Shown: positions 4,159 to 62,787, numbered from the stretch's first letter. The stretch is DNA of 64,000 nt from Candidatus Latescibacterota bacterium (GCA_965198095.1 OZ240239.1:118641-182640), one strand, 5' to 3'. Numbers and translations: made by a program. Notes: generated by a model not told the origin, from the letters alone.

Positions 4159-4187
4159 GGTACCCGTGTTTTGGTTGCCCGGTACCC
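4159..4187. repeat. GGTACC-box copy 1 (GGTACCCGTGTTTTGGTTGCCCGGTACCC)
   Basis: Two GGTACC palindromes 22 nt apart. Ends 5 nt after the stop of the 4193-5146 gene and 68 nt before the start of 2970-4091. Confidence 0.8.
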
Positions 4188-4192
4188 ATCGT

Positions 4193-5146
4193 TCAAAATC
4201 CGGCGCCCTTGTCACAGACGTAGAGAAACGGCTCTCCGGCCAGATACCTTCTCAGATTCTCTTTCAACCCATCGGCCCGTCCTCTCCACAGCCGGTCTGA
4301 CACCGAAGAGACGTGCGCCGTGAGGAGCACGTTCTCCATGTCCCAGAGCGGGTTGTCCGGAGGAAGGGGTTCTTGCGCCGTCACATCCAGCCCCGCGCCT
4401 CGAATCCGACCTGAACGCAGCCCGTCGATCAGCGCGGGCTCGTCCACAATGCCTCCACGGGAAATCACGATGACGTATCCGCCCGCCTTCAGCTTCCCCA
4501 GCTTCTCCCGATCGATCAAACCGCGCGTCTCCGGCGTCAACGGGGCCGTGACGACAAACCAGTCGGAAATCTGAAGCAGATCGTCCAGCCGATCCAGGCC
4601 CCACACCGCCTTGACCTCGGCCGGAGGATCGAACGGCCGGACGTCGACGGCAACCACCTCCATCCCGAATCCGTGTGCGCGGCGAGCCACGGCCCTCCCG
4701 ATGTCTCCCAGGGCCAGGATGCCCATGGTCGCCTCGTTCAACTCCACGAACCGGTTGTCGTAGTGCCGCCAGTCCCAGCGGTGCGCCGCCTGATCGGCCC
4801 AGAGGTCGCGTCCGCGGTGGGCAAGCGTCAGCATGAACAGGAAGACGTGATCGGCCATCGGGTTGGCGTGCGGACCCCGGACGTTCGTGAGCACGACGTC
4901 GCTCTCGACCAGTTCCGGGATGGCGGTCACCCGATCCACCCCGGTCCCCAGGATCTGAACCCACTTCAGTTTTTCGGCCGCCAGGAAAGATTCCCGTGAA
5001 AGCTCTCCAAACAAGGCGTCCGCATCCCGAACCTGCTCGATCTCCTCTTCAGGTGTGGCCGCAGGCACAAAATCGATCTCCGGAAACTCCTCGCGAAGCT
5101 CGCCCAGAAACTTGTCCCGCACGTGGCCGGTGACGACAATCTTCAT
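4193..5146 (-). CDS. D-isomer-specific 2-hydroxyacid dehydrogenase family (NAD-binding)
   Basis: Track ORF 4193-5212 trimmed to MKIVVTGHV at 5146, which has GGGAGGAG 7 nt upstream and lies 1 nt after the upstream stop. Motifs GILALGDIGRAVARRA, ISRGGIVDE and HVSS. Confidence 0.85.
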   Translation of the reverse strand: MKIVVTGHVRDKFLGELREEFPEIDFVPAATPEEEIEQVRDADALFGELSRESFLAAEKLKWVQILGTGVDRVTAIPELVESDVVLTNVRGPHANPMADHVFLFMLTLAHRGRDLWADQAAHRWDWRHYDNRFVELNEATMGILALGDIGRAVARRAHGFGMEVVAVDVRPFDPPAEVKAVWGLDRLDDLLQISDWFVVTAPLTPETRGLIDREKLGKLKAGGYVIVISRGGIVDEPALIDGLRSGRIRGAGLDVTAQEPLPPDNPLWDMENVLLTAHVSSVSDRLWRGRADGLKENLRRYLAGEPFLYVCDKGAGF

Positions 5147-5147
5147 C

Positions 5148-6458
5148 TCACGCTCCTCCCTGTTCGTTGTCCGACGTGAACCTGACCTGCCTGAATCGAT
5201 TCGCCAGGTCACGCACCCTTCTTCTGACCTGCTCAGGATCCTCCTCTTTTAGAGCATCCACGATACAGTCCGCGACCTCGGGCACGTCCGCCGCCGTCAT
5301 CCCGGTCCGCGTGAGCTCCTGGACACCCATGCGTATGCCATGGCTTCCGACCTCCCGAGGAATCGCCATCGCCCCCGCGATGATGTTGCACGCCTCAAGC
5401 CTGTCCGCGACCGCCTTGCCCTCGCCGAACGCATCCACGACCAGAAGCAACGTGTGCGTCTCCGTGTAACCCAACGCTTCTCCGATGAGGGGAACCCCGC
5501 GTTCGTGCAGCGCGGCACCCAGCGCCTTCGCATTGCCGATGACCGCGCTCGCGTGCGCTTCGCCGAACTCGATCCACTCCAGGAAGGTGGCTGCGAGGGC
5601 CGGGATGCGTCCGAGATGGTGATTGCTCTCCAGGAGCGGCGCAATCGCAGGGCCGATCTGCTCCGCCAGCGACTCGTCATTCGTCAGGACCAGACCCCCC
5701 TGAGGGCCGGCCAGCGTCTTGTGGGTACTGGAGATCACCACGTCGGCCCCCTCCTCCAGCGGGGATGGGAACCGCTTTCCGGCAATCAGGCCGATGACGT
5801 GGGCCGCGTCGAAGATCAGGCAGGCATCCGGAACATACCGGTCCATGGCCTCTCTGATCGCCCTCACCGGCTGCCGAAACAGGAAGACCCCCGACCCGAT
5901 CGTCACCAGCCTGGGTCTCTCCCTTTCGATGAGCGAGACCGTCTTTTCGAGATCGATGTTGTATCGCGGCCCGTCCCACGGAATCGAGATCGACTTGAGG
6001 TCGATCTCGAGCGGCGTCTCGGACAGCTTCTTGGCGTATTCGTGTCCGTTGAACACCTCCAGGGCCGTGTCCCCGGGTCTGGCGAGTGCGAAGGTCGTTG
6101 CAATACCGGCCAGGTTTCCCGACAGGGGACGCAGGTCGACGTAGGCCGCTCCGAAAAGCTCCTTCGCCAGCTCGTGCGCCAGCGCCTCGATCTCCGCGAT
6201 GTACCGATTTCCCTGGTAATGCCGGTGAAACAGGTCGATGCCGATGTAGTTGCCATACCGGTGATTCAGCTCGTGAGCGAACAGCCGATCCACGAGCGCG
6301 CTCGGGTGATTCTCGGAGGCGATGAGATTCAGGCTGTTCTCCCTGAATTCGCTGTGTCGATCGATCAGGGCATCAATCTGTTGGACTCTCGATTCGAAGT
6401 TCACGTCTCTCCTCGCTGGTAAAAATGTCCTGGTTGTCTTCTGGCCTGAATCATTCAT
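5148..6458 (-). CDS. Serine hydroxymethyltransferase-fold PLP enzyme (divergent SHMT-like)
   Basis: 436 aa with NLIASENHPS, RYGNY..., SSTHKTLAGPQGGLVLT (PLP lysine motif) and HHLGRIPALA. Diverges from canonical GlyA in the folate and substrate loops. Confidence 0.7.
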   Translation of the reverse strand: MNDSGQKTTRTFLPARRDVNFESRVQQIDALIDRHSEFRENSLNLIASENHPSALVDRLFAHELNHRYGNYIGIDLFHRHYQGNRYIAEIEALAHELAKELFGAAYVDLRPLSGNLAGIATTFALARPGDTALEVFNGHEYAKKLSETPLEIDLKSISIPWDGPRYNIDLEKTVSLIERERPRLVTIGSGVFLFRQPVRAIREAMDRYVPDACLIFDAAHVIGLIAGKRFPSPLEEGADVVISSTHKTLAGPQGGLVLTNDESLAEQIGPAIAPLLESNHHLGRIPALAATFLEWIEFGEAHASAVIGNAKALGAALHERGVPLIGEALGYTETHTLLLVVDAFGEGKAVADRLEACNIIAGAMAIPREVGSHGIRMGVQELTRTGMTAADVPEVADCIVDALKEEDPEQVRRRVRDLANRFRQVRFTSDNEQGGA

Positions 6459-7704: not shown

Positions 7705-9288
7705 TTATCCGCGATTGTCCTCACCTGAACAAGAGATACGCACGTGCACGTTCTTCACGACGATACCCCTGTTGGAAGGGTCCCGGTTGATCATCCTGAT
7801 CCTGTTCGACCCCTTCAGAATCTGCTCCGGCTCGACGCTGAAGCTGACCCATTCGCCATTCAGCGAGCCGCCCGAAACATCGCGGTCGTTCAGCCTCACC
7901 TCCACGCCCTCCGCAACGCTCAGTCCGTCGGCCTGAATGCTGAGCGTCACATCAGGTCTTTGACCCCGCCGATCGCCCGACGGATCCTCGCCGATCGTCA
8001 TGGTCACCGTGAAAGGCCGTGTGGGCTCGAGCTTCGCGGGACATTCCGGGTCCAGCACGGTGGGCAGCTCACAAAAACGAAGGAGATCTCGAATCTCTCG
8101 CCCCAGGAGAAACCGAAAATGCCCGTCCGAGAAATAGTCCTTGTCGAGCCGTGACAGGAAATCGGGGTCCCCCATCTCTCGCCACCCCGAGCTTTCGGGA
8201 TCGTCCGGCTGGCGTCTCTGTCCTCTCATTCCCGGTCGATTGGGGACGAGGTCGAAGTAGTTGAAGGTATAGACCCCGTCGGCGCCCGAGTGCCAGACAT
8301 TCATAGCGCGAGCGCGGAAATTTCTCATCGGAAGGCCGTCCTGAACGTCGGCCGGTCCCTCACGCCGTTTGGACCCGGACCAGCTCAGGCAGGGATAAAC
8401 CGTCACGCCGTGGCTGCGGCCCAGCGCCACCCACGCATCCCAGGGCGCCAACTCCCACTCGCCCGGAATCAGCAGGTCCACGAGCCCCTGTTCCAGCCAC
8501 GCCCTCACGTCCAGGCCGATCGCCTCGCAGCACGAAACCGAAGCGGGAATCCGCACCGCGACGAGGATCGGGCGCCTCCGCTCCAGGCCGATCCGTTCCG
8601 TCATGTCCCGAACCCGGCGAAGCAGGTCGGTCATCACATCCCGCTCCGCCTGCGTGCAGTCCTTCCCGTTCGCGTTGCACCTGAAGTGAGGCGGGTGGCG
8701 CATCCAGTCCATCTCGATCCCGTCCACGTCGTACCGCTTGCAGACATCCTCCTGCATCCCGAACGCTTTCTCCCGGACCTCCGCCTCGTCGTAGGCCGCC
8801 CCGGACCAGAATCCGAAGGCAGGAGGATCCTCGAGAGACCCGAACAGGAGCTGAGGGTTGTCCCCCTTGAACTGAGACCCCAGCATGTGCCACAGCGGGT
8901 AGGCGTCGTGGATGTCGTTCATCCGCATCGACCAGAAGACCTCGATCCCGTTCGCCCTGCAGAAGTCGACCATGATCTCCAGCGGGTCCAGACCGGCCTC
9001 GTGAAACGCCTTCGTCCGGTTCGCCTCGAACACGCCCTCTCTGGAAACGAACGGCTCGGAGACGTCGCTCATATGGGTCGCCATCCCCAGGCCGGCGCTC
9101 GTGCAGTAGAAGATCGAATCCACGTGCGTGCCGAGGAGGGGCGTCGTTCGGTCGGCCAGGAGCGCCTCGCGACTGATATCCTTGTCGCCAAGCCTATACA
9201 TAATAGTATTGCCGTCGTTATTGAAGATCACGCGCCGCCTGCGATGGGTGGCCTGCTCACGTCTCCTTCTGAGTTCGTCGAGTTGCAC
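7705..9288 (-). CDS. TIM-barrel glycoside-hydrolase-like protein, subfamily A
   Basis: 527 aa with a GTG start. VIFNNDGN...GIEVFWSMRMNDIHD...YDVDGIEMDWMRHPPHF...W.SGADGVYTFNYF. Tandem paralog of 9310-10821. No signal peptide. Family assignment is by pattern only. Confidence 0.8.
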   Translation of the reverse strand: MQLDELRRRREQATHRRRRVIFNNDGNTIMYRLGDKDISREALLADRTTPLLGTHVDSIFYCTSAGLGMATHMSDVSEPFVSREGVFEANRTKAFHEAGLDPLEIMVDFCRANGIEVFWSMRMNDIHDAYPLWHMLGSQFKGDNPQLLFGSLEDPPAFGFWSGAAYDEAEVREKAFGMQEDVCKRYDVDGIEMDWMRHPPHFRCNANGKDCTQAERDVMTDLLRRVRDMTERIGLERRRPILVAVRIPASVSCCEAIGLDVRAWLEQGLVDLLIPGEWELAPWDAWVALGRSHGVTVYPCLSWSGSKRREGPADVQDGLPMRNFRARAMNVWHSGADGVYTFNYFDLVPNRPGMRGQRRQPDDPESSGWREMGDPDFLSRLDKDYFSDGHFRFLLGREIRDLLRFCELPTVLDPECPAKLEPTRPFTVTMTIGEDPSGDRRGQRPDVTLSIQADGLSVAEGVEVRLNDRDVSGGSLNGEWVSFSVEPEQILKGSNRIRMINRDPSNRGIVVKNVHVRISCSGEDNRG

Positions 9289-9309
9289 GTCCCGAATCTC
9301 CGTGAAGGA

Positions 9310-10821
9310 TCAACCCGAATGGGCAATTCGCACGTGAACGTCCTTCAGAAGGACTTTGTTCGACGGATCCCGGTTGATCACCTTGATGGTGTTCGCCCCT
9401 TTTCGGATCCGCTCCGGCTCGACGCCGTAGCTGACCCATTCCTCCTGGAGATCGCCGTTCGAAAGAGCGCGGTCGTTCAGCCTGACTTCCAGACGGTCCG
9501 CTTCGGTCAGACCGTCGACGCGGACGCTCAGCGTCACGCTGGGATTGGATCCCGAGTCCTTTCCGGGCAGGTCTTCGCCAATCGTCACAATCGCCGTGTG
9601 AGGCCGGGTCGGTAAGAGCATCACGGGACTTCCCGGGTCCAGCGCAGTCGGATACTCGTAAAACCGAAGCAGGCCTTTGATCTCCCGCCCCAGCAGAAAC
9701 CGAAAATGACCGTCCGGGAAGTAGTCCTTGTCCAGTCCGGCCAGGAGCTCGGGGTCGCCCACCTCCCGCCAGGCCGCGCTCGATGGGTCGAACAGATTGT
9801 AGGTGTGGATCCCGTCCGCACCCGCGTGCCAGACGTACATCGCCCTGGCGCGGAAGTTCCTGAGCGCGATCCCGTCCTGCACGTCGGGCGGCCCCTGACG
9901 CCGCCTGGATCCTGACCAGGTCAGATCCGGATAGACCGGCACGCCGTGCTCCCGGCCCAGCTTTACCCAGGTCTCCCACGGCGCCAGCTCCATCTCCCCG
10001 GGGACCAGCAGATCCACGAGATCCTCCTTCAGCCACGCCCTCACGTCCAGGCCCATCACTTCGCAGCACCCGACAGAGGCGGGAAGGCGCTCCGCCACGA
10101 GCATCGGGCGGCCGCGCTCCAACCCGACCTGCTCCGTCATCTCGCGAATACGGCGGTGCAGGCCCGTCATGATCTCCCGCTCCACCTGCGTGCAGTCCTC
10201 CCCATTCGTGCCGCATTTGAAATGAGGCGGGTGGCGAAGCCAGTCCAGCTCGATGCCGTCCACGTCGTACCGCTTGCAGACATCCGCAAGCAGCTCGAAC
10301 GCCCGTTCCTGAACCTCCGGTTCGTCGTAATTCAGTCCTGACCACATTCCGTACTCGGATGGGTCTTCCAGCGATCCGTGCAGAACCTCGGGGTGGTCCT
10401 TCTTGAACTGAGGAATCATCTCAGACCACCGCGGCTGGCCGTCGTGGGTATCGTTCATCCGCATAGACATGAAAATCTCGATCCCGTTCTCCCTGCAGAA
10501 GTCGATCATAATCTGAAGAGGGTCCAGACCCGCCTCGTGGAACGCCTCGATCATGTTCGGCGCGAACACACGCGTCTTCGCGAGGAACGGTTCCGCGACA
10601 TCGCTGATGTAGGACACGTGACCCAGCCCTGCGCTCCAGGGGCAGTAGAAGATCGAGTCGACGTGCGATCCGATCAGCCCTGTCGTGCGGTCCGCAAGGA
10701 GAGCTTCGCGGCTCACCTCCTTGAGGTTGTAGACAATATCGCAGCCGTCGTTGTTGAAAATGATCCGACGTTTTCGGTGTTTGGCCTGCTCTCGCTGTTC
10801 CCTCAGTCGTTTCAATTCCAT
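9310..10821 (-). CDS. TIM-barrel glycoside-hydrolase-like protein, subfamily A (tandem paralog)
   Basis: Track ORF trimmed to MELKRLREQ at 10821, which has GAGGAG 9 nt upstream and aligns with the start of the paralog. IIFNNDGC...YDVDGIELDWLRHPPHF. Confidence 0.8.
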   Translation of the reverse strand: MELKRLREQREQAKHRKRRIIFNNDGCDIVYNLKEVSREALLADRTTGLIGSHVDSIFYCPWSAGLGHVSYISDVAEPFLAKTRVFAPNMIEAFHEAGLDPLQIMIDFCRENGIEIFMSMRMNDTHDGQPRWSEMIPQFKKDHPEVLHGSLEDPSEYGMWSGLNYDEPEVQERAFELLADVCKRYDVDGIELDWLRHPPHFKCGTNGEDCTQVEREIMTGLHRRIREMTEQVGLERGRPMLVAERLPASVGCCEVMGLDVRAWLKEDLVDLLVPGEMELAPWETWVKLGREHGVPVYPDLTWSGSRRRQGPPDVQDGIALRNFRARAMYVWHAGADGIHTYNLFDPSSAAWREVGDPELLAGLDKDYFPDGHFRFLLGREIKGLLRFYEYPTALDPGSPVMLLPTRPHTAIVTIGEDLPGKDSGSNPSVTLSVRVDGLTEADRLEVRLNDRALSNGDLQEEWVSYGVEPERIRKGANTIKVINRDPSNKVLLKDVHVRIAHSG

Positions 10822-10856
10822 ATCGCGAAACTCCTCATCTAACGCGTGCGCGAAAC

Positions 10857-10997
10857 AAATCCCCCCTGCCCCTCCCTCGACTCGCAAGCTCGCTCGGGAC
10901 AGGCCTTTGCTAAAGGGGGGAGACTACTCGTACCGACATACTACCCATCAAGAAACGGAATCCTCCCCCTTTGGAAAAGGGGGACTGAGGGGGATTT
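10857..10997. repeat. 141-nt element bounded by imperfect inverted repeats (AAATCCCCCCTGCCCC ... GGGGACTGAGGGGGATTT), MITE-like
   Basis: Terminal IRs read directly. Internal palindrome CCCCCTTT-GGA-AAAGGGGG (10965-10983). The left half recurs at 19704-19742. Confidence 0.55.
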
Positions 10998-11038: not shown

Positions 11039-13063
11039 TCACACCGCCGTATAAGAAAAATACCGCGCGTCGTTCGCGTCCAGCTCCACCGGAAGACCCT
11101 TCGCCATCAAATCCTTTCCAGAGTACTCGTCCGCCTCGCCCGACTTCTCGTTGGTCACACGATAGGTGCTCCCCGAATCGAGCGACCTCATCCGAATCTC
11201 CAGCCGATCCGTTGTGCCGTAATACCGGAAGACAAGCACGATCCCCTCTTTCGTCCCGTCACGGAACTGTCCGGCGTCCCAATCCGCCTCGTCCTGCGGC
11301 TGCGGCGTCAGGTGATGGTAGTCCTTCATCAGCAGATGCCGAAACCGCTTGTAGACCCCGATCCAGTGCTTCAGGTTCGCCAGCGGCACCGCCTCGATCT
11401 CGTCCATCCTGGCGCTGATGAAGAGCATCCCCGCCATACGGCTGATGCAGGACAGGTCCGAGATCTCCTCGTCCATCCCGATGTGACCCTTCAGCGGCTT
11501 GGGCGCCAGGATCGTCCCGAGGTGACTCGCGGGCAGGAAGGTGTTCCCGCTCAGCTGCATCCGCCGGCAGCGATGAGGATCGCCGCTGAACTCGTTGGCC
11601 CAGCATCCGTGGGACCGCCTCACCACGCCCAGATCGAGTCGGTGCGCCCCGACGGAATTGTTTTGAATGAAGACGTCAGGGTGCCGCTCGAGCAGCCGCT
11701 CCCACACCGAATACAGCCCCTCGTAATACGCGAACTGGATCTTCCCCGTCGGGTCCACGGCCTGCCACGTCGGCAAAGGTCCCTGGTCGCACTCCCAGTG
11801 GATGTATCTCAGCTTCAGTCGCTCGATCACGCCACTGACCAGTTCGAACACATAGTCGCACGCCTCGCGAAGCGCATAGTTCATCAGGCGATATCTGATT
11901 ACCACGAATTTCCAATCGCTCGCACCCTTCGGTGCGTCCGGGAAGAGCAGGTGGGGTTTCTCGTTCCAGATCTTCGTCCCCTCGGAGATCACTTCCAGGT
12001 CGAGGAACAACCCCATACCGATCTCCCTGGAGCGGAGATGTTCCGCCAACGCCTCCATGCCGCGAGGCCACTTCTGCGGGTCTTCAGGCCAGTTCCCAAA
12101 ACCCGTCGCGTGGAGACCCTTGAACCACATGACCACCAAGTCCGCCATCTCTACACCCAGTTCGGCGTTCACATCCGCGTGCAGAAAGAGCTCGTCCTCT
12201 TCAAAGGGCTCCCGGTTTCCCGGCCAGTAGGAATAGGTCACAGGAGGGAGCGCGGCGCCATGGAGCGGAGGGATCAGATGACCCGCGATATACCTTCGCA
12301 GGGCGTTGCTGCCCGCGTCGATGTCGCCCTCGAAGAAGCCGACGTGAACACGCGGAAGCTTCAGGCGCTCGCCCGGCTCCAGGACCAGTCCGTCCACTCC
12401 CGGACCGAGCTTCAGACTCAGGCCAGGTTCAAAGCCCGTGTAAGGCCGTTTCTCATCCGTCCGTTCCTCCGCCTGGACCCGATTCAAGACCTTGAAGTGA
12501 CCGTGCCACAGCCCCGACCACTCGAGGCCGAGAAAGAGTCCGGGTGCGTCCGACCGGGCGCCCGCCGTGGCCAGAAAGATCGGCAGATCCTGGTCCGAGG
12601 AAACGCCGTCTGCCGGCCCGTGGCTGAACTCCGGACCGAACCCCGCCATCGGCATATCCGTGCGCACCCAGTAGACCTCCCTACCCGGATAGCCCAGAAG
12701 CTTCCCGTAGGCACCACCAGAGCTGCTCACGATCTTCGGTATGCCTTCGAACCCGAACAGCGTCATGCTCAGCGCCCACAGGTCTGAAATCGGCTTGGAG
12801 CGCTCCGACGAGGTGTTCGTCAGCGAGAGCTGGTACTCCACCGCACCATAGTCAGGAACAACCTCCACGTGGCAGATCGCATCCAGGCCGGCGTCGCTGC
12901 CGAACCCGAGCTCCCAGCTGTCTTCCGACACCTGCTCGACCCCGTCCTCTGCCCACGTAACAGCGGCATCTTCCATCACGACCGAGAACAGCTCGGTTCG
13001 TTCGATGAACCGGGCCAGTGAAGGCGGGGCCGGCTTCAAGAATGCGTCGAATGTGGCTTGCAT
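11039..13063 (-). CDS. GH36-like (clan GH-D, alpha-galactosidase-like) glycoside hydrolase
   Basis: Start set at MQATFDAF to match the paralog start. Architecture is an N-terminal beta-sandwich followed by a barrel. IHWECDQ sits in the place of the GH36 KWD nucleophile motif, and NSVGAHRLDLG in the place of GGGRxD. Family call is tentative. Confidence 0.75.
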   Translation of the reverse strand: MQATFDAFLKPAPPSLARFIERTELFSVVMEDAAVTWAEDGVEQVSEDSWELGFGSDAGLDAICHVEVVPDYGAVEYQLSLTNTSSERSKPISDLWALSMTLFGFEGIPKIVSSSGGAYGKLLGYPGREVYWVRTDMPMAGFGPEFSHGPADGVSSDQDLPIFLATAGARSDAPGLFLGLEWSGLWHGHFKVLNRVQAEERTDEKRPYTGFEPGLSLKLGPGVDGLVLEPGERLKLPRVHVGFFEGDIDAGSNALRRYIAGHLIPPLHGAALPPVTYSYWPGNREPFEEDELFLHADVNAELGVEMADLVVMWFKGLHATGFGNWPEDPQKWPRGMEALAEHLRSREIGMGLFLDLEVISEGTKIWNEKPHLLFPDAPKGASDWKFVVIRYRLMNYALREACDYVFELVSGVIERLKLRYIHWECDQGPLPTWQAVDPTGKIQFAYYEGLYSVWERLLERHPDVFIQNNSVGAHRLDLGVVRRSHGCWANEFSGDPHRCRRMQLSGNTFLPASHLGTILAPKPLKGHIGMDEEISDLSCISRMAGMLFISARMDEIEAVPLANLKHWIGVYKRFRHLLMKDYHHLTPQPQDEADWDAGQFRDGTKEGIVLVFRYYGTTDRLEIRMRSLDSGSTYRVTNEKSGEADEYSGKDLMAKGLPVELDANDARYFSYTAV

Positions 13064-13116
13064 TTCAGCTCCCGCTTCCTGCAGCAACTACGTCACCATA
13101 CACTTCAGATGCGCAT

Positions 13117-13277
13117 GTCATTCCGAGGAGCCTCTGCAGAGTCAGATCACGCTTTGCCAAAAACTTGGCGTATTTGCGGCGACGAGGAATCTCAAAAGGG
13201 CATTACTCATTGACTATCTCTTGAAGTATCAGCTGCTGCGTAGACTGTTGCGATTCCTGGCTCACGCTCGGAATGAC
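13117..13277 (-). repeat. 161-nt nested inverted-repeat element in the leader of the GH36-like gene
   Basis: Outer arms GTCATTCCGAG (13117-13127) and CTCGGAATGAC (13267-13277) are perfect complements. An inner GAGGAATC / GATTCCTG pair is also present. Homologous to 15379-15541. Confidence 0.7.
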
Positions 13278-13312
13278 AGATTAGGTTGCGAGGTTCCTGT
13301 CGAAAAAGGTGA

Positions 13313-15337
13313 TCACAACTTTTTGTAGGAGAAAAACCTGGCATCATTGGCCTCCAGCTCCGCCGCAAGGCCCTGCGCCATCAAGTCCTTACCCGAACAC
13401 TCCTCCGCTTCGCCCGATTTCTCGTTCGTCACACGATACTGGCTCTTCGGATCGAGCGATCTCATCCTTATCTCCTGCCGTCCTGTCCTGCCGTAAAACC
13501 GGAAGACCAGCACGATTCCCTCCTTCGTCCCGTCACAGAACTGCCCGGCGTCCCAGTCCGCCTCGTCCTGCGGCTGCGGCGTCAGGTGATAGTAGTCCTT
13601 CATCAGCAGATGCCGGGACCGCTTGAAGACCCCGATCCAGTGCTTCAGGTTTGCCAGGGGCGCCGCCTCGATCTCGTCCATCCTGGCGCTTACAAAAAGC
13701 ATCCCCGCCATTCGGCTGATGCAGGACAGATCCGAGATCTCCTCGTCCATCCCGATATGGCCCTTCATCGGCTTGGGCGCCAGGATCGTCCCGAGGTGAC
13801 TCGCGGGCAGGAAGGTGTTCCCGCTCAGCTGCAACCTGCGGCACCGGTGTGGATCGCTCATGAACTCGGTGGCCCATCCGCCGTGGGAACGCTTGATCAC
13901 TCCCAGGTCGAGCCGGTGCGCCCCGACCAGGTTGTTCTGAATGAAGACGTCGGGGTGCCGCTCCAGCAGCCGCTCCCACACCGAGTACAGCCCCTCATAG
14001 AACGCGAACTGGATCTTCCCGGTCGGATCGACGGCCTGCCACGTCGGCAGGGGTGCCTGGTCACACTCCCAGTGGATATACCTCAGCTTCAGGCGCTCGA
14101 TCAGTCCGCTGACCATCTCCAAGACCGTATCGCACGTTTCCGGAAGCGCATAGTTCATCAGGCGGTATCTGAATCCCGCGAACTTGAAGTCGTGCGCCCC
14201 CTTCTTTGGATCCGGGAAGAGCAGGTGCGGTTTTTCGTTCCAGAAATCCGTCCCCTCGGCAACCACCTCCATTTCGATGAACAGCCCCAAACCGATCCCC
14301 TTCGCGCGGGCGTGTTCCGCGAAGGCCTCGATCCCGCTCGGCCACTTCTCCGGATCTTCCGGCCAGTTTCCGTGACTCCTGGGATGGTGACCCCTGACCC
14401 AGGCGACGTCCACGTTTGCCGTCTCGATACCGAGTTCCGCGCTCACGTCCATGTGTTGGCACAACTCATCCTCTGTAAATGGATCCCGGTTCCCCGGCCA
14501 GTAGGAATAGGTCACCTGAGGGAGCGCCATCCCCTCGAGTGGAGGGATCAGATAACCTGAAATGTAGCGGCGAAGGGCGTTGCTGCCGGCGTCGATGTCC
14601 CCCTCGAAGAAGCCGACGTGAACGCGCGGAAGCTTCAGGCGCTCGCCCGGTTCCAGGACCAGTCCATCCACTCCGGGGCCGAGCTTCAGACTGAGGCCGG
14701 GTTCAAAGCGCGTATAACGCCGTTTTTCGTCCGTCCGTTCCTCCGCCTGGCCCAGGTTTAGCGTCTTGAAGTGCGCGTGCCACAGCCCGGACCACTCCAG
14801 GCCCAGAAAGAGTCCCGGTGCGTCCGACTGGGCGCCGGCCGTGGCCAGAAAGATCGGCAGGTCCTGGTCTGAAGACACGCCGTCCGCCGGCCCGTGGCTG
14901 AACTCCGGTCCGAACCCCGACATCGGCATATCCGTCCGCACCCAGTACACCTCCCTACCCGGATAGCCCAGAACCTTCCCGTAGGCACCGCCGGAGCTGC
15001 TCACGATCTTTGGAAGACCTTCGAACCCGGACAGCGTCAGGCTCAGCGCCCACAGGTCCGAAATCGGCTTGCAGCGCTCCGACGAGGTGTTCGTCAGAGT
15101 GACCTGATACTCTACGGCACCATACTCTGCAACAACCTCCACGTGGCAGATCGCATCCAGCCCGGCGTCGCTGCTGAACCCGAGCTCCCAGGTATGCTCC
15201 GATACCTGCTCGACCTGGTCCTCCGTCCACGAAACGGCCGATGCTTCCATCATCACCGAAAACAGCTCCGTTCGCTCGATGAACTCGGCCAGTGAAGGTG
15301 GAGCCGGCTTCAGGAATGCATCGAATGTGGCCTTCAT
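13313..15337 (-). CDS. GH36-like glycoside hydrolase (tandem paralog of 11039-13063)
   Basis: 674 aa, alignable end to end with the neighbouring paralog and highly similar by eye. Same IHWECDQ and LVGAHRLDLG motifs. Confidence 0.8.
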   Translation of the reverse strand: MKATFDAFLKPAPPSLAEFIERTELFSVMMEASAVSWTEDQVEQVSEHTWELGFSSDAGLDAICHVEVVAEYGAVEYQVTLTNTSSERCKPISDLWALSLTLSGFEGLPKIVSSSGGAYGKVLGYPGREVYWVRTDMPMSGFGPEFSHGPADGVSSDQDLPIFLATAGAQSDAPGLFLGLEWSGLWHAHFKTLNLGQAEERTDEKRRYTRFEPGLSLKLGPGVDGLVLEPGERLKLPRVHVGFFEGDIDAGSNALRRYISGYLIPPLEGMALPQVTYSYWPGNRDPFTEDELCQHMDVSAELGIETANVDVAWVRGHHPRSHGNWPEDPEKWPSGIEAFAEHARAKGIGLGLFIEMEVVAEGTDFWNEKPHLLFPDPKKGAHDFKFAGFRYRLMNYALPETCDTVLEMVSGLIERLKLRYIHWECDQAPLPTWQAVDPTGKIQFAFYEGLYSVWERLLERHPDVFIQNNLVGAHRLDLGVIKRSHGGWATEFMSDPHRCRRLQLSGNTFLPASHLGTILAPKPMKGHIGMDEEISDLSCISRMAGMLFVSARMDEIEAAPLANLKHWIGVFKRSRHLLMKDYYHLTPQPQDEADWDAGQFCDGTKEGIVLVFRFYGRTGRQEIRMRSLDPKSQYRVTNEKSGEAEECSGKDLMAQGLAAELEANDARFFSYKKL

Positions 15338-15378
15338 CTCAGCCCCGTTCTACATCACGATACACTTTGCAGGAACCT

Positions 15379-15541
15379 GTCATCCCGAGGAGCCTTTACG
15401 GAGTCAAATCATGCCTTTCTTAAAAACCCTGGCGAATTACGGCGACGAGGAATCTCAGGAAGAAAGTATTCACTTAACAATATCTTGAAGACGTAGCTGC
15501 TCCGTCATGTGTTGAGATTCCTCGCTCGCGCTCGGAATGAC
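15379..15541 (-). repeat. 163-nt nested inverted-repeat element in the leader of the second GH36-like gene
   Basis: Sense strand reads GTCATTCCGAGCGCGAGCGAGGAATCTC ...57 nt... GAGATTCCTCGTCGCC ... GGCTCCTCGGGATGAC. The inner helix is 10 bp and perfect (15447-15456 with 15514-15523). The outer helix has one U-G position. Confidence 0.7.
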
Positions 15542-15595
15542 AAATCGGGTTGTGGACCTTGGTGATACACGCCCATCCGAAAGCCAAATACGTCA

Positions 15596-16783
15596 TCACC
15601 AGCTGGCGATGAATTCCTCCACGTCGAAATCTTCCGGCAAGTCCTGGCAGACGTACTCCATCGGCCCGGACTGGAAGCCCGGAACAAACTGCTCTTCATC
15701 AGATCTGAGCCTCGCGTCCAGCGCAGAGAAACGCTGCCACAGGGTATCGATCTCTTTCTGCGAAAATCGAGGGCCGACAACCTCGTGCTGAGTCCAATCA
15801 CGGAGATAGTTTCTTTGCTTCGGGTGAGAATCGAACCGGAGCTTGTAGACCAGTTTCGAGATGAGGATCAGACAGACGATCCGCGCAGGTTCGGCTGGGT
15901 GAAGCCTTGCAAGTGCATCCTGAAAAGGCTCAACATCCTTGTCCAAAACGGCGCGGAGCAGCGACGTGATCGTATCGCACTCCTCCGCATAAAACGCCGC
16001 GAGTCGATCGTAGACCCGGCGGCCGGATTCCGACAGATATCGGGTGAATCCGAGATCTCGAACAAACCCGGGGACGTACGGAAAGACCGGGCCTCCGAAT
16101 GAACGGTAGCCCAGATGGACTGTCCTGCGCAGCTTGGTCCCGTAGTTGCTGCCCCAGTGGAGAATCGTATTCGTATACACCACCCCGTCGCCCGCTTTCA
16201 ACTCCACCTGAAGGCCATTGGGGAGGGGGACACAGGGGTCCTCGTCCAGCAGGCAGTTCTCCTCGTCGGTATTCGATCGACGGTGACTTCCGGGAATGAC
16301 CCACAGCACGTCGTCGTCGTAGAGCGGGATGTTCCACTGCAGATAGCCCGGAGCGTTTTCCAGCAGGTCGATCTGCAGGCCGCGAAGCGGCCCTTCGTCC
16401 ATCGGATGGATGTCGCGATGCCACTTCGCCGGCCCGTGGTCGCGCACCGGGTTGCACATCATGAAGATGCCTGTGTTCGACGCTTCCTCAGCTTGCATCA
16501 ATTGGCGGTTGACGCCCCTCGTGTTTTCGTGAAGGCAGAACTCCATCGTGTCGGCAGTCGTTTCGTCGATCAGGTTCTGCCATCCCCTCAGCCGGGGCTG
16601 GGGATCGGCCTCCCACACCCCGCCCGGCGGGTCTCCCGGTTCGCGGTCACGGGCCCAGATCTCCCGCTGCCGATCGACAAGCGTCTCGAAATTTTTCCTC
16701 AGCCCCTCGAGTTGATCCGGCGGAATCACCTCACGCAGGATGATGAACCCATCTTTTTTCAGTTGCCCGAGGTCTACATTCAT
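15596..16783 (-). CDS. Phytanoyl-CoA dioxygenase (PhyH) family Fe(II)/2-oxoglutarate oxygenase
   Basis: 395 aa with WHRD (HxD), VIPGSHR and ILHWGSNY (distal His), plus the KDGFIILREV N-terminus typical of PhyH. Confidence 0.75.
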   Translation of the reverse strand: MNVDLGQLKKDGFIILREVIPPDQLEGLRKNFETLVDRQREIWARDREPGDPPGGVWEADPQPRLRGWQNLIDETTADTMEFCLHENTRGVNRQLMQAEEASNTGIFMMCNPVRDHGPAKWHRDIHPMDEGPLRGLQIDLLENAPGYLQWNIPLYDDDVLWVIPGSHRRSNTDEENCLLDEDPCVPLPNGLQVELKAGDGVVYTNTILHWGSNYGTKLRRTVHLGYRSFGGPVFPYVPGFVRDLGFTRYLSESGRRVYDRLAAFYAEECDTITSLLRAVLDKDVEPFQDALARLHPAEPARIVCLILISKLVYKLRFDSHPKQRNYLRDWTQHEVVGPRFSQKEIDTLWQRFSALDARLRSDEEQFVPGFQSGPMEYVCQDLPEDFDVEEFIASW

Positions 16784-16845: not shown

Positions 16846-17517
16846 TCACGCCTTCAGTATGGCCGAAAGCTGCTCCGTCCTCACCAGATCCGCCCAACGC
16901 GATCCGATCAGACAGGGCATGATGTCCTTCGTCCCCTGCGTCTGGAAGAGCACCGCGTCTTCCACCCAGCTGTTTTTGTAACCGTATTCCCGGCTCTGGA
17001 TCAGCGTATAGAACACGCAGGCGTCCCCGAACTGGCCGCAGAGCACGTTGTGCTCGATCCCCGCGTTGCGCAGCATGAAGTCCAGCCCGGTCCCCGTAAA
17101 CGAGGAGCTCGTCGGCTTCTGAATCACGATCTCGCCCTCGATCGGCGCCAGCTCATCGATCACCGACATCGGTTTGCTGCCCACGAGGTCGTAATCCCGG
17201 CCTTTCATGTAGGGCACCATGTCCCGCCCGTCTTTCGTTCGCCTCGCCATTTCCATAAACACCACCGTCCCGCCCGCTTTGCGAAAGACATCCAGCACCA
17301 GCCTGATCCTCGGGATGATCTCCGCCAGCTCCTTCTCGAAGAACGCCCGCCGCTCCTCCAGCGCTTCGGCTTTCAGCCCGGTCTGTCCCGTGACCCACCA
17401 GTCCGGGTCACAGAATCGATTCATCATGTCCACGATAATCAGCGCCGTCCGATCTGGCGGAAGTTGGTCCGCCTCACTCAACCGCGACACCGTGAACTGG
17501 TCCAAATCCACGAGCAT
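16846..17517 (-). CDS. Isochorismatase-family cysteine hydrolase
   Basis: 223 aa with TALIIVDMMNRF and GQFGDACVFYT, the catalytic Asp and Cys motifs. Confidence 0.8.
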   Translation of the reverse strand: MLVDLDQFTVSRLSEADQLPPDRTALIIVDMMNRFCDPDWWVTGQTGLKAEALEERRAFFEKELAEIIPRIRLVLDVFRKAGGTVVFMEMARRTKDGRDMVPYMKGRDYDLVGSKPMSVIDELAPIEGEIVIQKPTSSSFTGTGLDFMLRNAGIEHNVLCGQFGDACVFYTLIQSREYGYKNSWVEDAVLFQTQGTKDIMPCLIGSRWADLVRTEQLSAILKA

Positions 17518-17630
17518 CGGTCTCTCCTTTGCTTTTCGTTTTTCTCAATCTTCTCTGCGACCTCTGCGCCTCGGATCACAATCCTTTGGGGGCAGGCGGT
17601 GATTCTTGGTTCTTGATTTTCCCGATCCCC

Positions 17631-17659
17631 GGTACCCGTGTTTTGCTTTCCCGGTACCC
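17631..17659. repeat. GGTACC-box copy 2 (GGTACCCGTGTTTTGCTTTCCCGGTACCC)
   Basis: Lies 42 nt after the stop at 17702 and 114 nt before the start at 17517. Confidence 0.8.
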
Positions 17660-17701
17660 GGATTTCCATTCCGCAATCCCAAATTCGCAATCCGCAATTG
17701 G

Positions 17702-19255: not shown

Positions 19256-19306
19256 GCTCCCTCCTGTATTTGGCTTGGTTTCGATTTCCAGACTACCCTT
19301 TGACGG

Positions 19307-19530: not shown

Positions 19531-19538
19531 AGCTTACG

Positions 19539-19639
19539 TTCGCCAGCAGGAGCTGGCTCCTACCTTATGAACGGCTTGTGAATATTACCTGATTCCAAAC
19601 GCCGGTAAATCCGGTAGGAGCCGCCTCCCGGCGGCGAAC
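19539..19639. repeat. REPIN (inverted REP doublet), stems GCCAGC/GCTGGC and GCCGCC/GGCGGC
   Basis: TTCGCCAGCAGGAGCTGGCTCCTACC ...46 nt... CCGGTAGGAGCCGCCTCCCGGCGGCGAAC. Same unit as the array at 42353-42967. Confidence 0.85.
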
Positions 19640-19913: not shown

Positions 19914-19941
19914 GGTACCCGTGTTTTGCTTTCCCGGTACC
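19914..19941. repeat. GGTACC-box copy 3
   Basis: GGTACCCGTGTTTTGCTTTCCCGGTACC, ending 7 nt after the stop at 19949. Confidence 0.8.
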
Positions 19942-19948
19942 AGGCCCT

Positions 19949-21615: not shown

Positions 21616-21722
21616 ATATGAATAGACGTCTGAAACGGTTCAACAACGAACCCACGGTACTCCTGTTCTGATTCCCGGGTGCTCGCCTTCACGATCCACG
21701 AACAACGGTTTTTACGATCCCC

Positions 21723-21751
21723 GGTACCCGTGTTTTGCTTTCCCGGTACCC
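21723..21751. repeat. GGTACC-box copy 4
   Basis: GGTACCCGTGTTTTGCTTTCCCGGTACCC, 17 nt after the stop at 21769. Preceded by CACGATCCACGAACAACGGTTTTTACGATCC. Confidence 0.8.
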
Positions 21752-36517: not shown

Positions 36518-36543
36518 GGGACACCTGTTTTGATTTCCGCTAC
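36518..36543. repeat. GGTACC-box copy 6 (degenerate: GGGACACCTGTTTTGATTTCCGCTAC)
   Basis: The central TGTTTTGATTTCC is retained but both GGTACC arms are mutated. Ends 4 nt after the stop at 36548. Preceded by TCGAACGACGGTTTTTT. Confidence 0.55.
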
Positions 36544-36547
36544 TCTC

Positions 36548-49565: not shown

Positions 49566-49619
49566 TTTTGACTTCCCGGTACCCCGTGTCTTGTTCTCCC
49601 GGAACCCGGTACCCGGTAG
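49566..49619. repeat. GGTACC-box copy 7 (expanded)
   Basis: TTTTGACTTCCCGGTACCCCGTGTCTTGTTCTCCCGGAACCCGGTACCCGGTA, ending 8 nt after the stop at 49627. Confidence 0.7.
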
Positions 49620-49626
49620 CTCGCTG

Positions 49627-50547
49627 TTACGCCACGTCACCCAAGATCTGCGCGACGACATCCAGACCCACGAGCTCGCTCCACGCCTGCTGCAGCCTGC
49701 CGCACGCCGGTCCCGGCTTTCCGTTACCGATCGCCATGTTGTTGATCCGCGTCACCGGCCTGAGGCAGAATGGGGTCGAGCTCTCAAAGGCCTCGTCCGC
49801 GTTGCAGACGTCGAACACCTGGAAGTCTCTTTCCACGAACGGAATCTCGAGTCTGTCTGCCAACTCGATCACGGTCTGCCGGCTGATCCCCGGAAGGGCG
49901 TTGCGCAGCGTCGGGGAAACGATCGTTCCCTCCTGAACGATCAGCAGGTTCCCGCCGCTGAACTCGGCCACGTTCCCATCCAGGTCCAGCATCAGCACTG
50001 CTGCCTTCGGGTCGACCATCCTCGCCTCTTTCTCCGCCAGCCAGTAATGCATTCGGCTTCGATATTTCATCTTGGGGTCGATACACTGCGGTGGCACGTG
50101 ACGGGTGGACGGCGTTACCGCGTGCACGCCGTCCCGCACCCCCTCGGTCCAGAAGTGCAGGGGCAGAGCGAAGGTGTGAACACAGACCGTCGGTGCCATC
50201 TCCTGCGTCCCGGCGGAGGTGCCGGCGTAGACCGAAAACGATCCGGCCGTGACGAAGTGGATCACGCCCAGCTCCTTTTCCTTCGGAAGCAGCGCGGCGT
50301 TGTGGTCGATCACCTTCATGGTGATGTCGATCATCTCCTTCGGGCTGATCTCTGTCTGGAAACGGGCGTAGTTCATCGACCGGTAGAGCCGGTCCACGTG
50401 CTCGCCGAGCTTGAACGGCTTCTGGTTGAACGTCCGGGTCATCTCGGTGACCGTTGCGCCCAGCACGACACCGGCGTCGTAGACCGGCAACGCAGCCTCC
50501 GCGTAGGGTATGAATTTTCCCTTCAGGTAGGCGATGGGCTCTTTCAC
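49627..50547 (-). CDS. Class IV (branched-chain / D-amino-acid) aminotransferase
   Basis: 306 aa with LDLDGNVAEFSGGNLLIVQEGTIVSPTLRNALPGISRQTVIELA, typical of fold-type IV enzymes. Confidence 0.8.
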   Translation of the reverse strand: MKEPIAYLKGKFIPYAEAALPVYDAGVVLGATVTEMTRTFNQKPFKLGEHVDRLYRSMNYARFQTEISPKEMIDITMKVIDHNAALLPKEKELGVIHFVTAGSFSVYAGTSAGTQEMAPTVCVHTFALPLHFWTEGVRDGVHAVTPSTRHVPPQCIDPKMKYRSRMHYWLAEKEARMVDPKAAVLMLDLDGNVAEFSGGNLLIVQEGTIVSPTLRNALPGISRQTVIELADRLEIPFVERDFQVFDVCNADEAFESSTPFCLRPVTRINNMAIGNGKPGPACGRLQQAWSELVGLDVVAQILGDVA

Positions 50548-61051: not shown

Positions 61052-61084
61052 ACGACTCTAATTTTCTTATCACCAGAGTAACAA

Positions 61085-61157
61085 TCGCCGCCGGGAGGCG
61101 GCTCCTACCGGATCAATGAGTGCGATGTATCTGGTAGGAGCCAACTCCCGTTGGCGA
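61085..61157. repeat. Short-spacer REPIN with mixed stems (GCCGCC/GGCGGC and GCCAAC/GTTGGC)
   Basis: TCGCCGCCGGGAGGCGGCTCCTACC ...23 nt... GGTAGGAGCCAACTCCCGTTGGCGA. Confidence 0.85.
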
Positions 61158-61191
61158 CGAAATGACTCACGGTGATTGCATACGGTTTTCC

Positions 61192-62712
61192 TTACTGTTT
61201 AGGAATCTGCAACGCATAAAGCTTCGCGTTGTCCATGGTAAAACGAACTCTGACCGGGAGATGCGCTCCGATATCCGAGTTTCCCCTCCACGTGAACGTA
61301 TGCGCCAGGCTGTCCCCCTTGAAGGTATCACAGTCCTCTCTGGAAAAGCCATCAACAACGTATCCATCCGAGGTTAGAAGTTCGGCGTCAATATAACCTC
61401 CGGACGCAACGGCGTTGACGACAAGTCGATTGCCCGGCGATTGAAGCGGTTTCGTCAACAGTGTAGGCGGGTAATTATTCTTGGTGCTTCTGTGCGAATT
61501 GTCGATCGCGTCGATGGAGACGAATCCGTCCAGCCGCAGCTTGGCCAGCCCGAGCTTTGTGTTACCACCCGCGTCGTGGCGGTTGTCCGTCCCGGTATAG
61601 TAAACCCAGTGCTCATCCCCGACCCGCATCGGGGCCTGTAACATTGCGCACATGCCCCACTCCCAGCTTCCATCCGGACCGAGGGGCAGAAAAGGCCCGG
61701 TTCTCAGCCGTTCCCAGTGGAAACTGTCCCTGCTGTGCGAAAGGTACATATCCATCGTGTCGTGCGCCGTGTGATGTGTCCTCACGAAGCCGAGGTAGAT
61801 GCTCTCGTAGTAGAACGCCTCCATGCCGTAGAAGTCCGTATCGAACGGATCCAGCGCGTCCTTGTCGATCACGGGCGCAGACATCGACCAGTGGATCAGG
61901 TCGTTGCTCTGCATCCTCTGGATCGATCGCTCCGTCCTGTGCACCAGCATCGGACTTGGATAGGGATTTCGACAAAATCCAAGGTACTTCTTGCTCACGG
62001 GATCATACATGATACTAAGCGTCTCGTCTCCTCGCCCGGCACTGATCGGCCCCGGGTCCGGCGTCCAGTGGATCCCGTCGGGGGAATGGAAGACCGCCGG
62101 CTGTCCTCCTCCGTGACCCATCTTGTAGCGTCTGGACGGATCGGCCTCAGGATCCTTCACGACGTATTGACACTTGGTCTCGTAAACGATGTTCGTGTCG
62201 CTGCCATCGGTGTGTTTCACCACGCCCAGCGGCGGCGTTTCCCACTTGATGCCGTCCTCCGAGGTGGCATACAGGATCCTATAGTTATAGCTTCGCACGG
62301 GCACACCTTCTACCGTCAGGCCGTTGTACCACATCTTCCAGATCCCGTCTTCTTCGTCGTAGAGGATCCTTGCCGGCCACGGCGCAGACCTGCCCTCCCA
62401 GTCGTGCGACCGCTGCATGATCGGATTGCCTTCGTACCGCACGGGCTGATTCACCGTCCGCGTCACGAAGGCGGTCGCCCTGAGCAGATGCCCTGGTACG
62501 TCCGCTTCGATCTTGTCGGTTGCCTCGCTCCATCCGTCCAGGTTCGTTCGCTCCTCGGCTGACGCCGGTATCCGCGGCTGTACCCATCGGGCCGTCTCCG
62601 CGAGACGAGGAGAAATCCAGCGCGTCGTCTCGATAATGTGGTCGTCCACAAAAAGCTGCTTGCGTGTACCGACATCAACGATCAGTTCTGATCCTGGAAC
62701 CTGTAACCTCAT
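61192..62712 (-). CDS. Five-bladed beta-propeller glycoside-hydrolase-like protein with a C-terminal beta-sandwich
   Basis: 506 aa. AAGGAGG lies 7 nt upstream. Repeated S.DG..W blades. LAKLRLDGFVSIDA. C-terminus ...VRVRFTMDNAKLYALQIPKQ. Confidence 0.8.
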   Translation of the reverse strand: MRLQVPGSELIVDVGTRKQLFVDDHIIETTRWISPRLAETARWVQPRIPASAEERTNLDGWSEATDKIEADVPGHLLRATAFVTRTVNQPVRYEGNPIMQRSHDWEGRSAPWPARILYDEEDGIWKMWYNGLTVEGVPVRSYNYRILYATSEDGIKWETPPLGVVKHTDGSDTNIVYETKCQYVVKDPEADPSRRYKMGHGGGQPAVFHSPDGIHWTPDPGPISAGRGDETLSIMYDPVSKKYLGFCRNPYPSPMLVHRTERSIQRMQSNDLIHWSMSAPVIDKDALDPFDTDFYGMEAFYYESIYLGFVRTHHTAHDTMDMYLSHSRDSFHWERLRTGPFLPLGPDGSWEWGMCAMLQAPMRVGDEHWVYYTGTDNRHDAGGNTKLGLAKLRLDGFVSIDAIDNSHRSTKNNYPPTLLTKPLQSPGNRLVVNAVASGGYIDAELLTSDGYVVDGFSREDCDTFKGDSLAHTFTWRGNSDIGAHLPVRVRFTMDNAKLYALQIPKQ

Positions 62713-62753
62713 TGATAAGCCTCCTTATCTCGATCCACGATTAGCGGGTTTGC

Positions 62754-62787
62754 GGTACCCGGTACCCGTATTTGACTTCCCAGTACC
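62754..62787. repeat. GGTACC-box copy 8 (GGTACCCGGTACCCGTATTTGACTTCCCAGTACCC)
   Basis: The left arm is duplicated and the right arm reads AGTACC. Ends 6 nt after the stop at 62794 and 42 nt before the start at 62712. Confidence 0.7.

Follow-up and report, generated by a model that had tools for sequence, protein, structure and literature searches.

A strand-polar, G-rich 22-bp tandem repeat next to stop codons in one narrow marine lineage of Candidatus Latescibacterota

The region studied here is a stretch of 64,000 nucleotides from a Candidatus Latescibacterota bacterium (GCA_965198095.1 OZ240239.1:118641-182640), called the window below, with positions counted from its first letter. In it a short sequence, the GGTACC-N16-GGTACC box, recurs between genes, just behind stop codons. 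What is this box? Is it an operator, an insulator or an RNA site that punctuates the expression of a gene region lacking a regulator, as the sequence-only reading of the window had proposed? Or, is it a repeat of a kind already met in other bacteria? We find that the box is one of several strand-polar G-rich repeat modules occupying the intergenic gaps of a single marine lineage of Latescibacterota, and that its family is a polar G-rich repeat of minisatellite type, probably recognised by sequence. The unique punctuation mark that had been suggested it is not.

The pattern GGTACC-N14-18-GGTACC has five exact matches in the window (4159, 17631, 19914, 21723 and 35324), all written on the + strand, and none in 100 dinucleotide-preserving shuffles of it. 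A 29-nt consensus fits the five sites with 0-1 mismatch. The 15-mer GGTACCCGTGTTTTG, allowed up to three mismatches, matches ten times in the window against 0.97 expected and adds 36518, 62761 and a decayed unit at 21656. The total for the window is five exact and three degenerate copies, so that the copies reported before, including the degenerate ones at 36518, 49566 and 62754, were found again with their coordinates and consensus. Two readings of the box had been offered, a direct repeat and a pair of palindromes two helical turns apart. The first has held, since the box is 1.3 copies of a 22-bp tandem-repeat unit that reaches 31.5 copies in an array, and the second is secondary to it. On the G-rich, sense strand the unit reads 5'-GGGTACC GGGRAAB CAAAACAC-3' and is composed of G3N4 heptamers; an example of the G strand is CCGGGTACCGGGAAAGCAAAACACGGGTACCGGGTACCG. 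A partial unit (RRNACCG) usually adjoins the unit on the 5' side, and on the 3' side there usually comes one further heptamer (GGGTACC, GGGGATC or similar) and then NAAAA.

Loci of relatives, numbered with the prefix L, were examined as stretches of 8-21 kb. Tandem Repeats Finder gives a period of 22 in them, with 31.5 copies in L008 and 5.8 and 8.4 in L012, and head-to-tail arrays of two to three copies occur at several further loci. Other short repeats accompany the box and share its strand polarity: (ATTGCGG)n, for which a period of 7 was confirmed, GGATCGT/CGTTCGT and CCGCAGAGGCGCGGAG. The second of these is the adjacent motif described before, ACGAACGACGATCCACG..TTTT, which is real. The defining features of a CRISPR-like array are absent from the box. 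Reading GGTACC as a KpnI restriction site is uninformative, since this hexamer and other GTAC hexamers alike are moderately rare in coding sequence.

How widely is the box distributed? When 185,579 species-representative genomes were searched with GGTACCCGTNTTTNNNTTNCCCGGTACC, 38 matches in 33 loci came back, all of them in OZ252100.1, the complete 5.66-Mb chromosome of a Candidatus Latescibacterota metagenome-assembled genome that has 85-90% nucleotide identity to the window in coding regions. Nineteen of the 33 loci lie at 3.6-4.1 Mb, a 0.5-Mb region homologous to the one-strand gene region of the window. A looser pattern, run against 241 million records, matched only in five short contigs of one Joint Genome Institute (JGI) metagenome, 92-95% identical to OZ252100.1. 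The viral contigs searched with the looser pattern gave no matches, and a phage origin was rejected on that ground. Further relatives were reached through protein look-ups, namely L039 and L041-L046 (94-99.8% identical to the window) and the Tara Oceans contig L040 (87%). In the genome of the next-nearest homologue of a flanking gene (L047, 66% amino-acid identity) the corresponding gap has no repeat. The box family is limited to one narrow marine Latescibacterota lineage, and a literature search on Latescibacteria repeats found nothing relevant.

Placement relative to genes was counted over the window and the 33 OZ252100.1 loci, 328 kb in all, of which 82% is coding. With up to four mismatches there are 83 box matches in 61 sites, and 0 of the 83 lie inside a predicted gene. 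The distribution is highly non-random relative to the ends of open reading frames (ORFs), and the public gene calls on L041-L046, made independently, agree with the intergenic placement. GGTACC itself occurs at 3.16 per kb in intergenic DNA versus 0.13 per kb in coding DNA. At 51 sites the closer ORF boundary is a stop codon, and at six it is a start codon. In 25 of the 47 distinct stop-side gaps the first GGTACC follows the stop by 3-8 nt, with a mode of 6, and in a cluster of gaps at 18 nt a second stop-like TAG stands 4 nt ahead of the first GGTACC. The short spacer between stop and box resembles the end of the unit (TGA-AACCG, TAA-AAACCG and TAG-GAACCG, compared with AAAACACG), so the stop codon sits at the box's own edge.

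The genes upstream of the box belong to 29 unrelated protein families, with functions as varied as Lon protease, formate-tetrahydrofolate (THF) ligase, hybrid histidine kinase, sulfatase, GH28 and beta-lactamase-fold proteins. Because 29 unrelated families precede it, the association of the box with gene ends is not merely inherited by gene duplication, and spread by duplication only is ruled out; recombination between paralogues does move copies. Because the functions are so diverse, the neighbours do not look like a regulon. From the box to the next start codon the distance varies from 66 to 1483 nt (median 177). A transcription-factor operator, one of the functions first proposed, was rejected: the box has no fixed position relative to the start and is tied instead to the stop (22 vs 169 nt), its spacer is polar and conserved, and its neighbours form no coherent regulon and share no function.

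The box is strongly oriented. In 50 of 51 gaps (p = 5e-14) its G-rich strand has its 5' end on the side of the closer ORF end; the median distance to an ORF is 22 nt on the 5' side of the G strand vs 169 nt on its 3' side, where no site has an ORF inside 50 nt. What sets this orientation, transcription or replication? With the origin of OZ252100.1 placed near 2.95 Mb by the GC skew of the loci, the G strand coincides with the leading strand at 51 of 57 sites; it coincides with the sense strand of the neighbouring gene equally often, at 51 of 57. Among genes on the lagging strand, the boxes of L003 and L023 (three sites) follow the gene, those of L010 (two sites) and L014 follow replication, and that of L022 follows neither. 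Transcription polarity and replication polarity are confounded for box orientation, each fitting equally well.

The fit to the replichore, with L010 and L014 going the way of replication, is one of the observations in favour of a non-autonomous mobile element, carried by a single-strand transposase (RAYT, IS200/IS605-like) or something similar, whose strand bias is set by replication. Dispersal behind 29 unrelated genes would also suit such an element, as would the small hairpin and the abundance of REP-like elements in the same genomes. We nevertheless regard it as improbable. The sites of L003 and L023 follow the gene, the copies lack inverted doublets, a GTAG-type 5' tetranucleotide and a target-site duplication, clean pairs of filled and empty sites are missing, and the tandem arrays are unlike repetitive extragenic palindromic (REP) elements or miniature inverted-repeat transposable elements (MITEs). 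Membership of the MITEs in particular was rejected: there is no consistent target-site duplication, the flanks look like partial units, and orthologous gaps differ by turnover of modules and not by clean insertion.

Which known repeats, then, does the box resemble? A REP element is an imperfect but stable palindrome headed by a GTAG-type sequence; such elements often come as inverted pairs, are linked to RAYT transposases and are transcribed together with the upstream gene. Like the REP elements and bacterial interspersed mosaic elements (BIMEs) of enterobacteria and pseudomonads, the box is short, dispersed, intergenic, mostly at gene 3' ends, oriented and strain-variable. It differs in repeating head to tail, without inverted doublets, and in having a weak stem that does not covary. 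We do not place it among the REP/BIME elements, as its copies are direct and never inverted, it has no GTAG head, and its stem does not covary. The pneumococcal BOX elements are built of 45-59-nt modules, form long stable structures and behave like MITEs. The Latescibacterota box shares with them a modular mosaic make-up, one module that varies in copy number and an intergenic position, but has no sequence relation to them. An integron attC site was rejected as well, there being no RYYYAAC...GTTRRRY core sites in the 28-40-nt element and a box at only 8 of ~43 genes; 40 of the 43 window proteins were scanned for an integrase domain and none was found.

The closest likeness is to the G-rich heptamer repeats of Xanthomonas and Nostoc. 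These GGGAATC and GGGGA(C/T)T repeats are over-represented in non-coding DNA, run to 2-26 units with four preferred, and have been measured to form quadruplexes (PMC4692102). They are mostly transcribed, the genes adjoining them are functionally unrelated, and they have no known function (PMC4692102, Rehm et al. 2015). They also obey a rule of position in which an ORF lies near on the 5' side of the G strand, so that the repeat comes after a stop when on the coding strand or before a start when on the non-coding strand (PMC4692102). The box has the same kind of G3N4 blocks (GGGTACC, GGGGATC, GGGRAAB), the same positional rule, the non-coding bias, the variable number and the lack of functional coherence among neighbours. 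It differs in its 22-nt unit, which includes an A-rich non-G segment (CAAAACAC) and a palindromic hexamer; a typical box has 1.3 units and one heptamer instead of four heptamers; any quadruplex of it would have a 12-nt central loop; and it is confined to one Latescibacterota lineage. Cyanobacterial short tandemly repeated repetitive (STRR) heptamers are lineage-restricted intergenic tandem short repeats. The TAACTGA direct repeats directly precede start codons on the sense strand, are not G-rich and have a 7-nt unit (PMC4679880, MacGregor 2015). Both are looser analogues, like the box in being lineage-restricted, intergenic, tandem and oriented to genes, with no known means of spread and with post-transcriptional roles proposed, and unlike it in unit length (7 nt vs 22 nt). 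The box belongs to a known, poorly understood kind, the polar G-rich intergenic short tandem repeats, and is not a new type of regulatory box.

Could the box be an intrinsic terminator? On the sense strand its core can pair as a 6-bp GGUACC/GGUACC stem around a 16-nt loop (-9.5 kcal/mol). No U-tract follows; the sense strand continues instead with GGGTACC/GGGGATC/GTAAAAC. In other gaps there are canonical terminators (12-13-bp GC stem and T-run) and also TTGACN-N17-TATNNT promoters. Of the 47 box-bearing gaps, 37 have no terminator-like hairpin, nine have one after the box and one has one before it. A role in termination, whether in the sense direction or, through a mini hairpin and T-run on the opposite strand, in antisense, can hardly be the explanation. 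A consensus scan does flag CGCGGTACCCGTG+TTTTGATTTC on the antisense strand, and a position after the stop fits. The anatomy tells against it, with stems of 4-6 bp, a 16-nt loop, no sense U-tract and folding energies like those of shuffles, as do the GC stems of 12-13 bp with T-runs that the genome uses elsewhere and the ten gaps that carry a real terminator besides the box. On these grounds the intrinsic terminator was rejected, and the sequence-only reading had been right in judging that a 6-bp stem and a 16-nt loop with no U-tract make no simple terminator. The window has no match to Rfam 15 at gathering score and no tRNA genes; among Rfam matches with E<5 in 17400-21900 there is only the unrelated COG3860 (16 bits, 19113-19157).

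Comparison of orthologous gaps, which had also been proposed, bears on whether the sequence of the box is itself under constraint. Fourfold-degenerate sites are on average 70% identical between the window and OZ252100.1 (range 58-89%). The boxes are identical at 28 of 28 positions at 35324 vs L031, 28 of 28 at 19914 vs L032 and 27 of 28 at 4159 vs L017, next to fourfold sites that are 58-71% identical (58% in the genes flanking the 35324 box). At 21723 vs L006 and at 62754 vs L015 the figure is ~23 of 28, and the box at 17631 is missing in OZ252100.1. The box is kept at 35324 and 21723 even though the spacer beside it is not alignable there. The non-G positions of the A-rich 'loop' CAAAACAC are as conserved as the GGTACC arms, and one free position (13: T, G or C, almost never A) is kept between orthologues. 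The box is conserved in sequence beyond the needs of a hairpin or a quadruplex. The pattern points to constraint on the box sequence itself, A-rich part included. Of the earlier preference for a protein-binding site over a terminator, recognition by sequence remains plausible, given a loop conserved like the arms and 0 compensatory changes, and the operator is the part that became unlikely.

A protein that reads double-stranded DNA could account for some of this. The box would then be a site for a nucleoid-associated protein, an insulator, gyrase as at BIMEs, or a roadblock, with its GGTACC palindromes two helical turns apart. The 22-bp period and the palindromic hexamer suit such a site, conservation at the level of sequence with no covariation is in keeping with it, and the copies do cluster in one 0.5-Mb one-strand region. 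We still think it unlikely. A reader of palindromes needs neither strict strand polarity nor a conserved asymmetric spacer, variants in the arrays lose the palindrome, the boxes keep to stops and not to promoters, and no DNA-binding gene adjoins the long arrays.

The repeats also turn over. At 4159 the window and OZ252100.1 differ by a 7-nt GGGTACC indel. The box after the gene at 31981-33414 is present in OZ252100.1 and missing in the window, the reverse of 17631, so that presence or absence differs between species at about 86% identity. Between strains 94-99% identical there are one or two units, or variant units, after an 824-aa gene, and changes of GGTACC to GCGACC or GGGATC are seen among strains. 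In L045 and L046 a second box after a 517-aa gene copies the 3' flank of that gene's paralogue. These comparisons show that strains differ in the copy number of the box, for which slippage or unequal recombination is the simplest explanation, and that copies move with gene 3' ends when paralogues recombine. Tandem paralogous gene pairs with 70-83% nucleotide identity lie at 7705-10887, 11039-15337, 17702-21517 and 61192-63993 (in order, an unknown family, GH36, GHL10-like and another unknown family, some with at least three copies in OZ252100.1), and recombination between these paralogues reshuffles 3' flanks.

Is function needed at all? The box may be the functionless by-product of a polar mutational process, in which slippage acts together with structure-induced deletions that run from the repeat toward the 5' side of the G strand and are halted at the ORF by selection; the repeats would in this way end up directly beside the nearest ORF. 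Polar deletions induced by G-quadruplexes (G4) are known in C. elegans. The geometric rule speaks for this possibility, holding in 50 of 51 gaps and at starts as well as stops, and the same rule applies in unrelated phyla to another repeat (PMC4692102). So do the strain-variable copy number and unit sequence, the long homogeneous arrays, the differences in presence at ~86% identity, the narrow-lineage distribution, the neighbours with no common function and the stop-to-box spacer that looks like a partial unit. It is the main rival, if a somewhat unlikely one, to the explanation that we prefer. Orthologous copies are 96-100% identical across ~30% fourfold-site divergence, at positions irrelevant to structure too, and a specific 28-40-nt sequence stands behind 29 unrelated genes, which slippage alone cannot yield.

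The explanation that we prefer, tentatively, is that the box is a polar G-rich tandem repeat that is transcribed at the ends of cistrons and acts there in cis, recognised by its sequence, and is neither a terminator nor an operator. Being on the sense strand in about nine cases out of ten, it would be transcribed as the first nucleotides of the 3' untranslated region (UTR) or of the intercistronic spacer, since most box-bearing gaps have no terminator. If it acts at all, it would act in cis on the transcript, as a weakly structured segment read by sequence. It may fold as the GGUACC hairpin (about -9.5 kcal/mol) or as a 4-12-4 G-quadruplex, and either structure would fall within the footprint of the terminating ribosome. 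Liang, Rudd and Deutscher reportedly found in 2015 that REP elements affect the upstream cistron when within ~15 nt of the stop codon. The box may similarly modulate termination, the coupling of adjoining cistrons or 3'-end decay. In a more specific version, which we put forward as rather doubtful, the 22-nt unit would be the cis site of a strand-specific factor binding RNA or single-stranded DNA, by which the ends of cistrons are marked in the long one-strand gene trains for polysaccharide utilisation in this lineage; the factor would read the A-rich segment, the abutment on the stop and the 22-nt register, and copy number would tune the relative output of the neighbours.

Several observations weigh against a cis-acting element at transcript ends. 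Six sites have the opposite orientation (L001, L010 twice, L014, L021 and L022) with a start codon following 13-75 nt downstream, and a role at RNA 3' ends leaves them unexplained. In L002 and L008 a canonical terminator stands between the stop and the repeat. Structure offers little help: over 61-nt contexts the folding energy is no different from that of shuffles (z -0.2 to -2.1 sense; +0.5 to -1.5 antisense), and 89 distinct box copies show 0 compensatory changes, with a paired fraction of 89.9% vs 90.3% in column shuffles. In the L008 array both arms have changed in parallel to GGAACC, breaking the pairing, which is how a direct repeat and not a hairpin behaves. Lack of compensation, pairing at shuffle level and parallel arm changes together rule out a conserved RNA hairpin. 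The quadruplex would need a 12-nt central loop, and its fourth tract is missing in three of the five exact window copies. The constraint argument is weakened by the generally better conservation of alignable intergenic DNA than of fourfold sites. Finally, the loci were selected for containing an exact box, and most gene calls are heuristic, made in this analysis. As to the G tracts themselves, the G strand has at least four G3 tracts (loops up to 12 nt) at 51 of 61 sites and the other strand at none; all quadruplex loops are at most 7 nt at just 3 of the 61, and ViennaRNA with its G-quadruplex option still prefers the hairpin.

In the window, genes were predicted with a codon-usage gene finder trained on Pfam-supported ORFs. 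All 43 lie on the minus strand, the G-rich and presumably leading strand, as the earlier description of a one-strand gene train had it, and all box copies fall in gaps between minus-strand genes. For the five exact copies the distance between the preceding stop and the first GGTACC is 6, 43, 7, 18 and 6 nt, which agrees within 1 nt with the distances given before, depending on whether a flanking G is counted. In keeping with the lack of a regulator gene noted before, a domain scan of 40 of the 43 window proteins turned up no regulator domain. The genes encode sulfatases, GH127, GH36, BNR proteins and sugar-acid enzymes.

The first copy (4159..4187, minus strand) has 1.3 units, reads GGGTACCGGGCAACCAAAACACGGGTACC on the sense strand and stands 6 nt after the stop TGA of a 2-hydroxyacid dehydrogenase gene (4193-5146/5212). 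It is the same in strains L039 and L041, and its OZ252100.1 orthologue has one additional GGGTACC heptamer. Copy 2 is part of a composite element at 17615..17701 (minus strand), which in sense order consists of the stop TAG, (ATTGCGG)-type heptamers (17660-17698, with a period-7 repeat detected at 17670-17698), the box (17631-17659) and GGGGATCGGGAAAATC heptamers (17615-17630). The composite is not present in the orthologous gap of OZ252100.1; in strains L045 and L046 a second box lies here, immediately 3' of the stop. Copy 3 (19914..19942, minus strand) follows the stop of a GHL10-like gene (19949-21517) by 7 nt, and its first GGTACC is GCGACC in L045 and L046. Copy 4 (21723-21751, within an element at 21656..21751 on the minus strand) lies 18 nt after a TGA, with a TAG 4 nt (TTCG) before the first GGTACC. 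GGGGATC and GGATCGT-type heptamers come next, then the decayed unit at 21656-21670. This locus has one unit in the window, L042 and L043, two or variant units in L044-L046, and a GGGCCC variant in OZ252100.1.

Copy 5 (35324-35352, minus strand) stands 6 nt after the stop of a PhyH gene (35358-36335) and is accompanied by a GGATCGTCGTTCGT module at 35293-35310. The decayed copy at 36518..36547 (minus strand; sense TGAGAGAGTAGCGGAAATCAAAACAGGTGTCCC) has lost both GGTACC sites and matches the 15-mer with three mismatches. The expanded copy at 49566..49620 (minus strand) reads GGGTACC GGGTTCC GGGAGAA CAAGACAC GGGGTACC GGGAAGT CAAAAGAT in the sense direction. It has an insertion and additional heptamers, with period 7 at 49598-49618, and follows the stop of a class IV aminotransferase gene (49627-50547). 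The variant copy at 62754..62790 (minus strand; sense GGGTACTGGGAAGTCAAATACGGGTACCGGGTACC) begins 6 nt after a stop TAG and ends in a doubled heptamer; its OZ252100.1 orthologue, L015, has two units. Just past the left end of the window, strain L041 (97-99% identical) carries a perfect box and an extra heptamer at 15737-15764, 12 nt after the stop of a GHL10-like gene.

Other repeats share the gaps of the window. At 41615-43041 a 125-nt unit in ~5 tandem copies consists of two REP-like palindromes, GTAGGAGCCAGCTCCTGCTGGCGA and GTAGGAGCCGCCTCCCGGCGGCGA, and single copies of the pair occur in two other gaps (19533-19656 and ~61080-61150). The 1-kb gap at 33338-34330 is filled by tandem repeats nested in one another (54, 179 and 233 nt), which combine a CTTCGCCAACAGAGTTGGC palindrome with a REP-like GGTAGGAGCCGTCTCCCGACGGCGA. 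In the gaps after GH36 paralogues, at 13088-13312 and 15338-15595, there are inverted pairs of GTCATTCCGAGCG(C/T)GAGC(G/C)AGGAATC, ~110 nt apart; this is a dispersed palindromic repeat that occurs in L001 and L027 too. The gaps at 24244-24841 and 31423-31980 are paralogous, each with a GC-hairpin and T-run terminator, a TTGACN-N17-18 promoter-like site and a leader of ~250-300 nt, ahead of the 824-aa gene and a SusC-like (CarboxypepD_reg) gene respectively; the leaders could hold regulatory RNA. At 19256-19520, two frames of the minus strand give EDVLDVYQRPYD and HWRFTTNDARIKLRKLYP. This looks like a C-terminal remnant of an IS630-type transposase, identified by eye and not by a hidden Markov model (HMM), in line with the insertion sequence (IS) remnant described before. 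From this point onward the sequence of L045 and L046 differs.

What do these repeats mean for the Latescibacterota? For annotation, boxes of this kind should not be labelled terminators or operators. Across the series of strains and species at 86%, 94% and 97-99% identity the repeats can be seen to change, and this series could serve to separate explanations based on transcription, on replication and on deletion. Even if the box has no function, it extends the rule that ties G-rich repeats to ORFs, published in 2015 without a mechanism, to a third, unrelated lineage and to another kind of unit. If the cis function is true, it would be a compact, sequence-defined mark of gene ends, ~40 nt long, in a phylum without a cultivated member.

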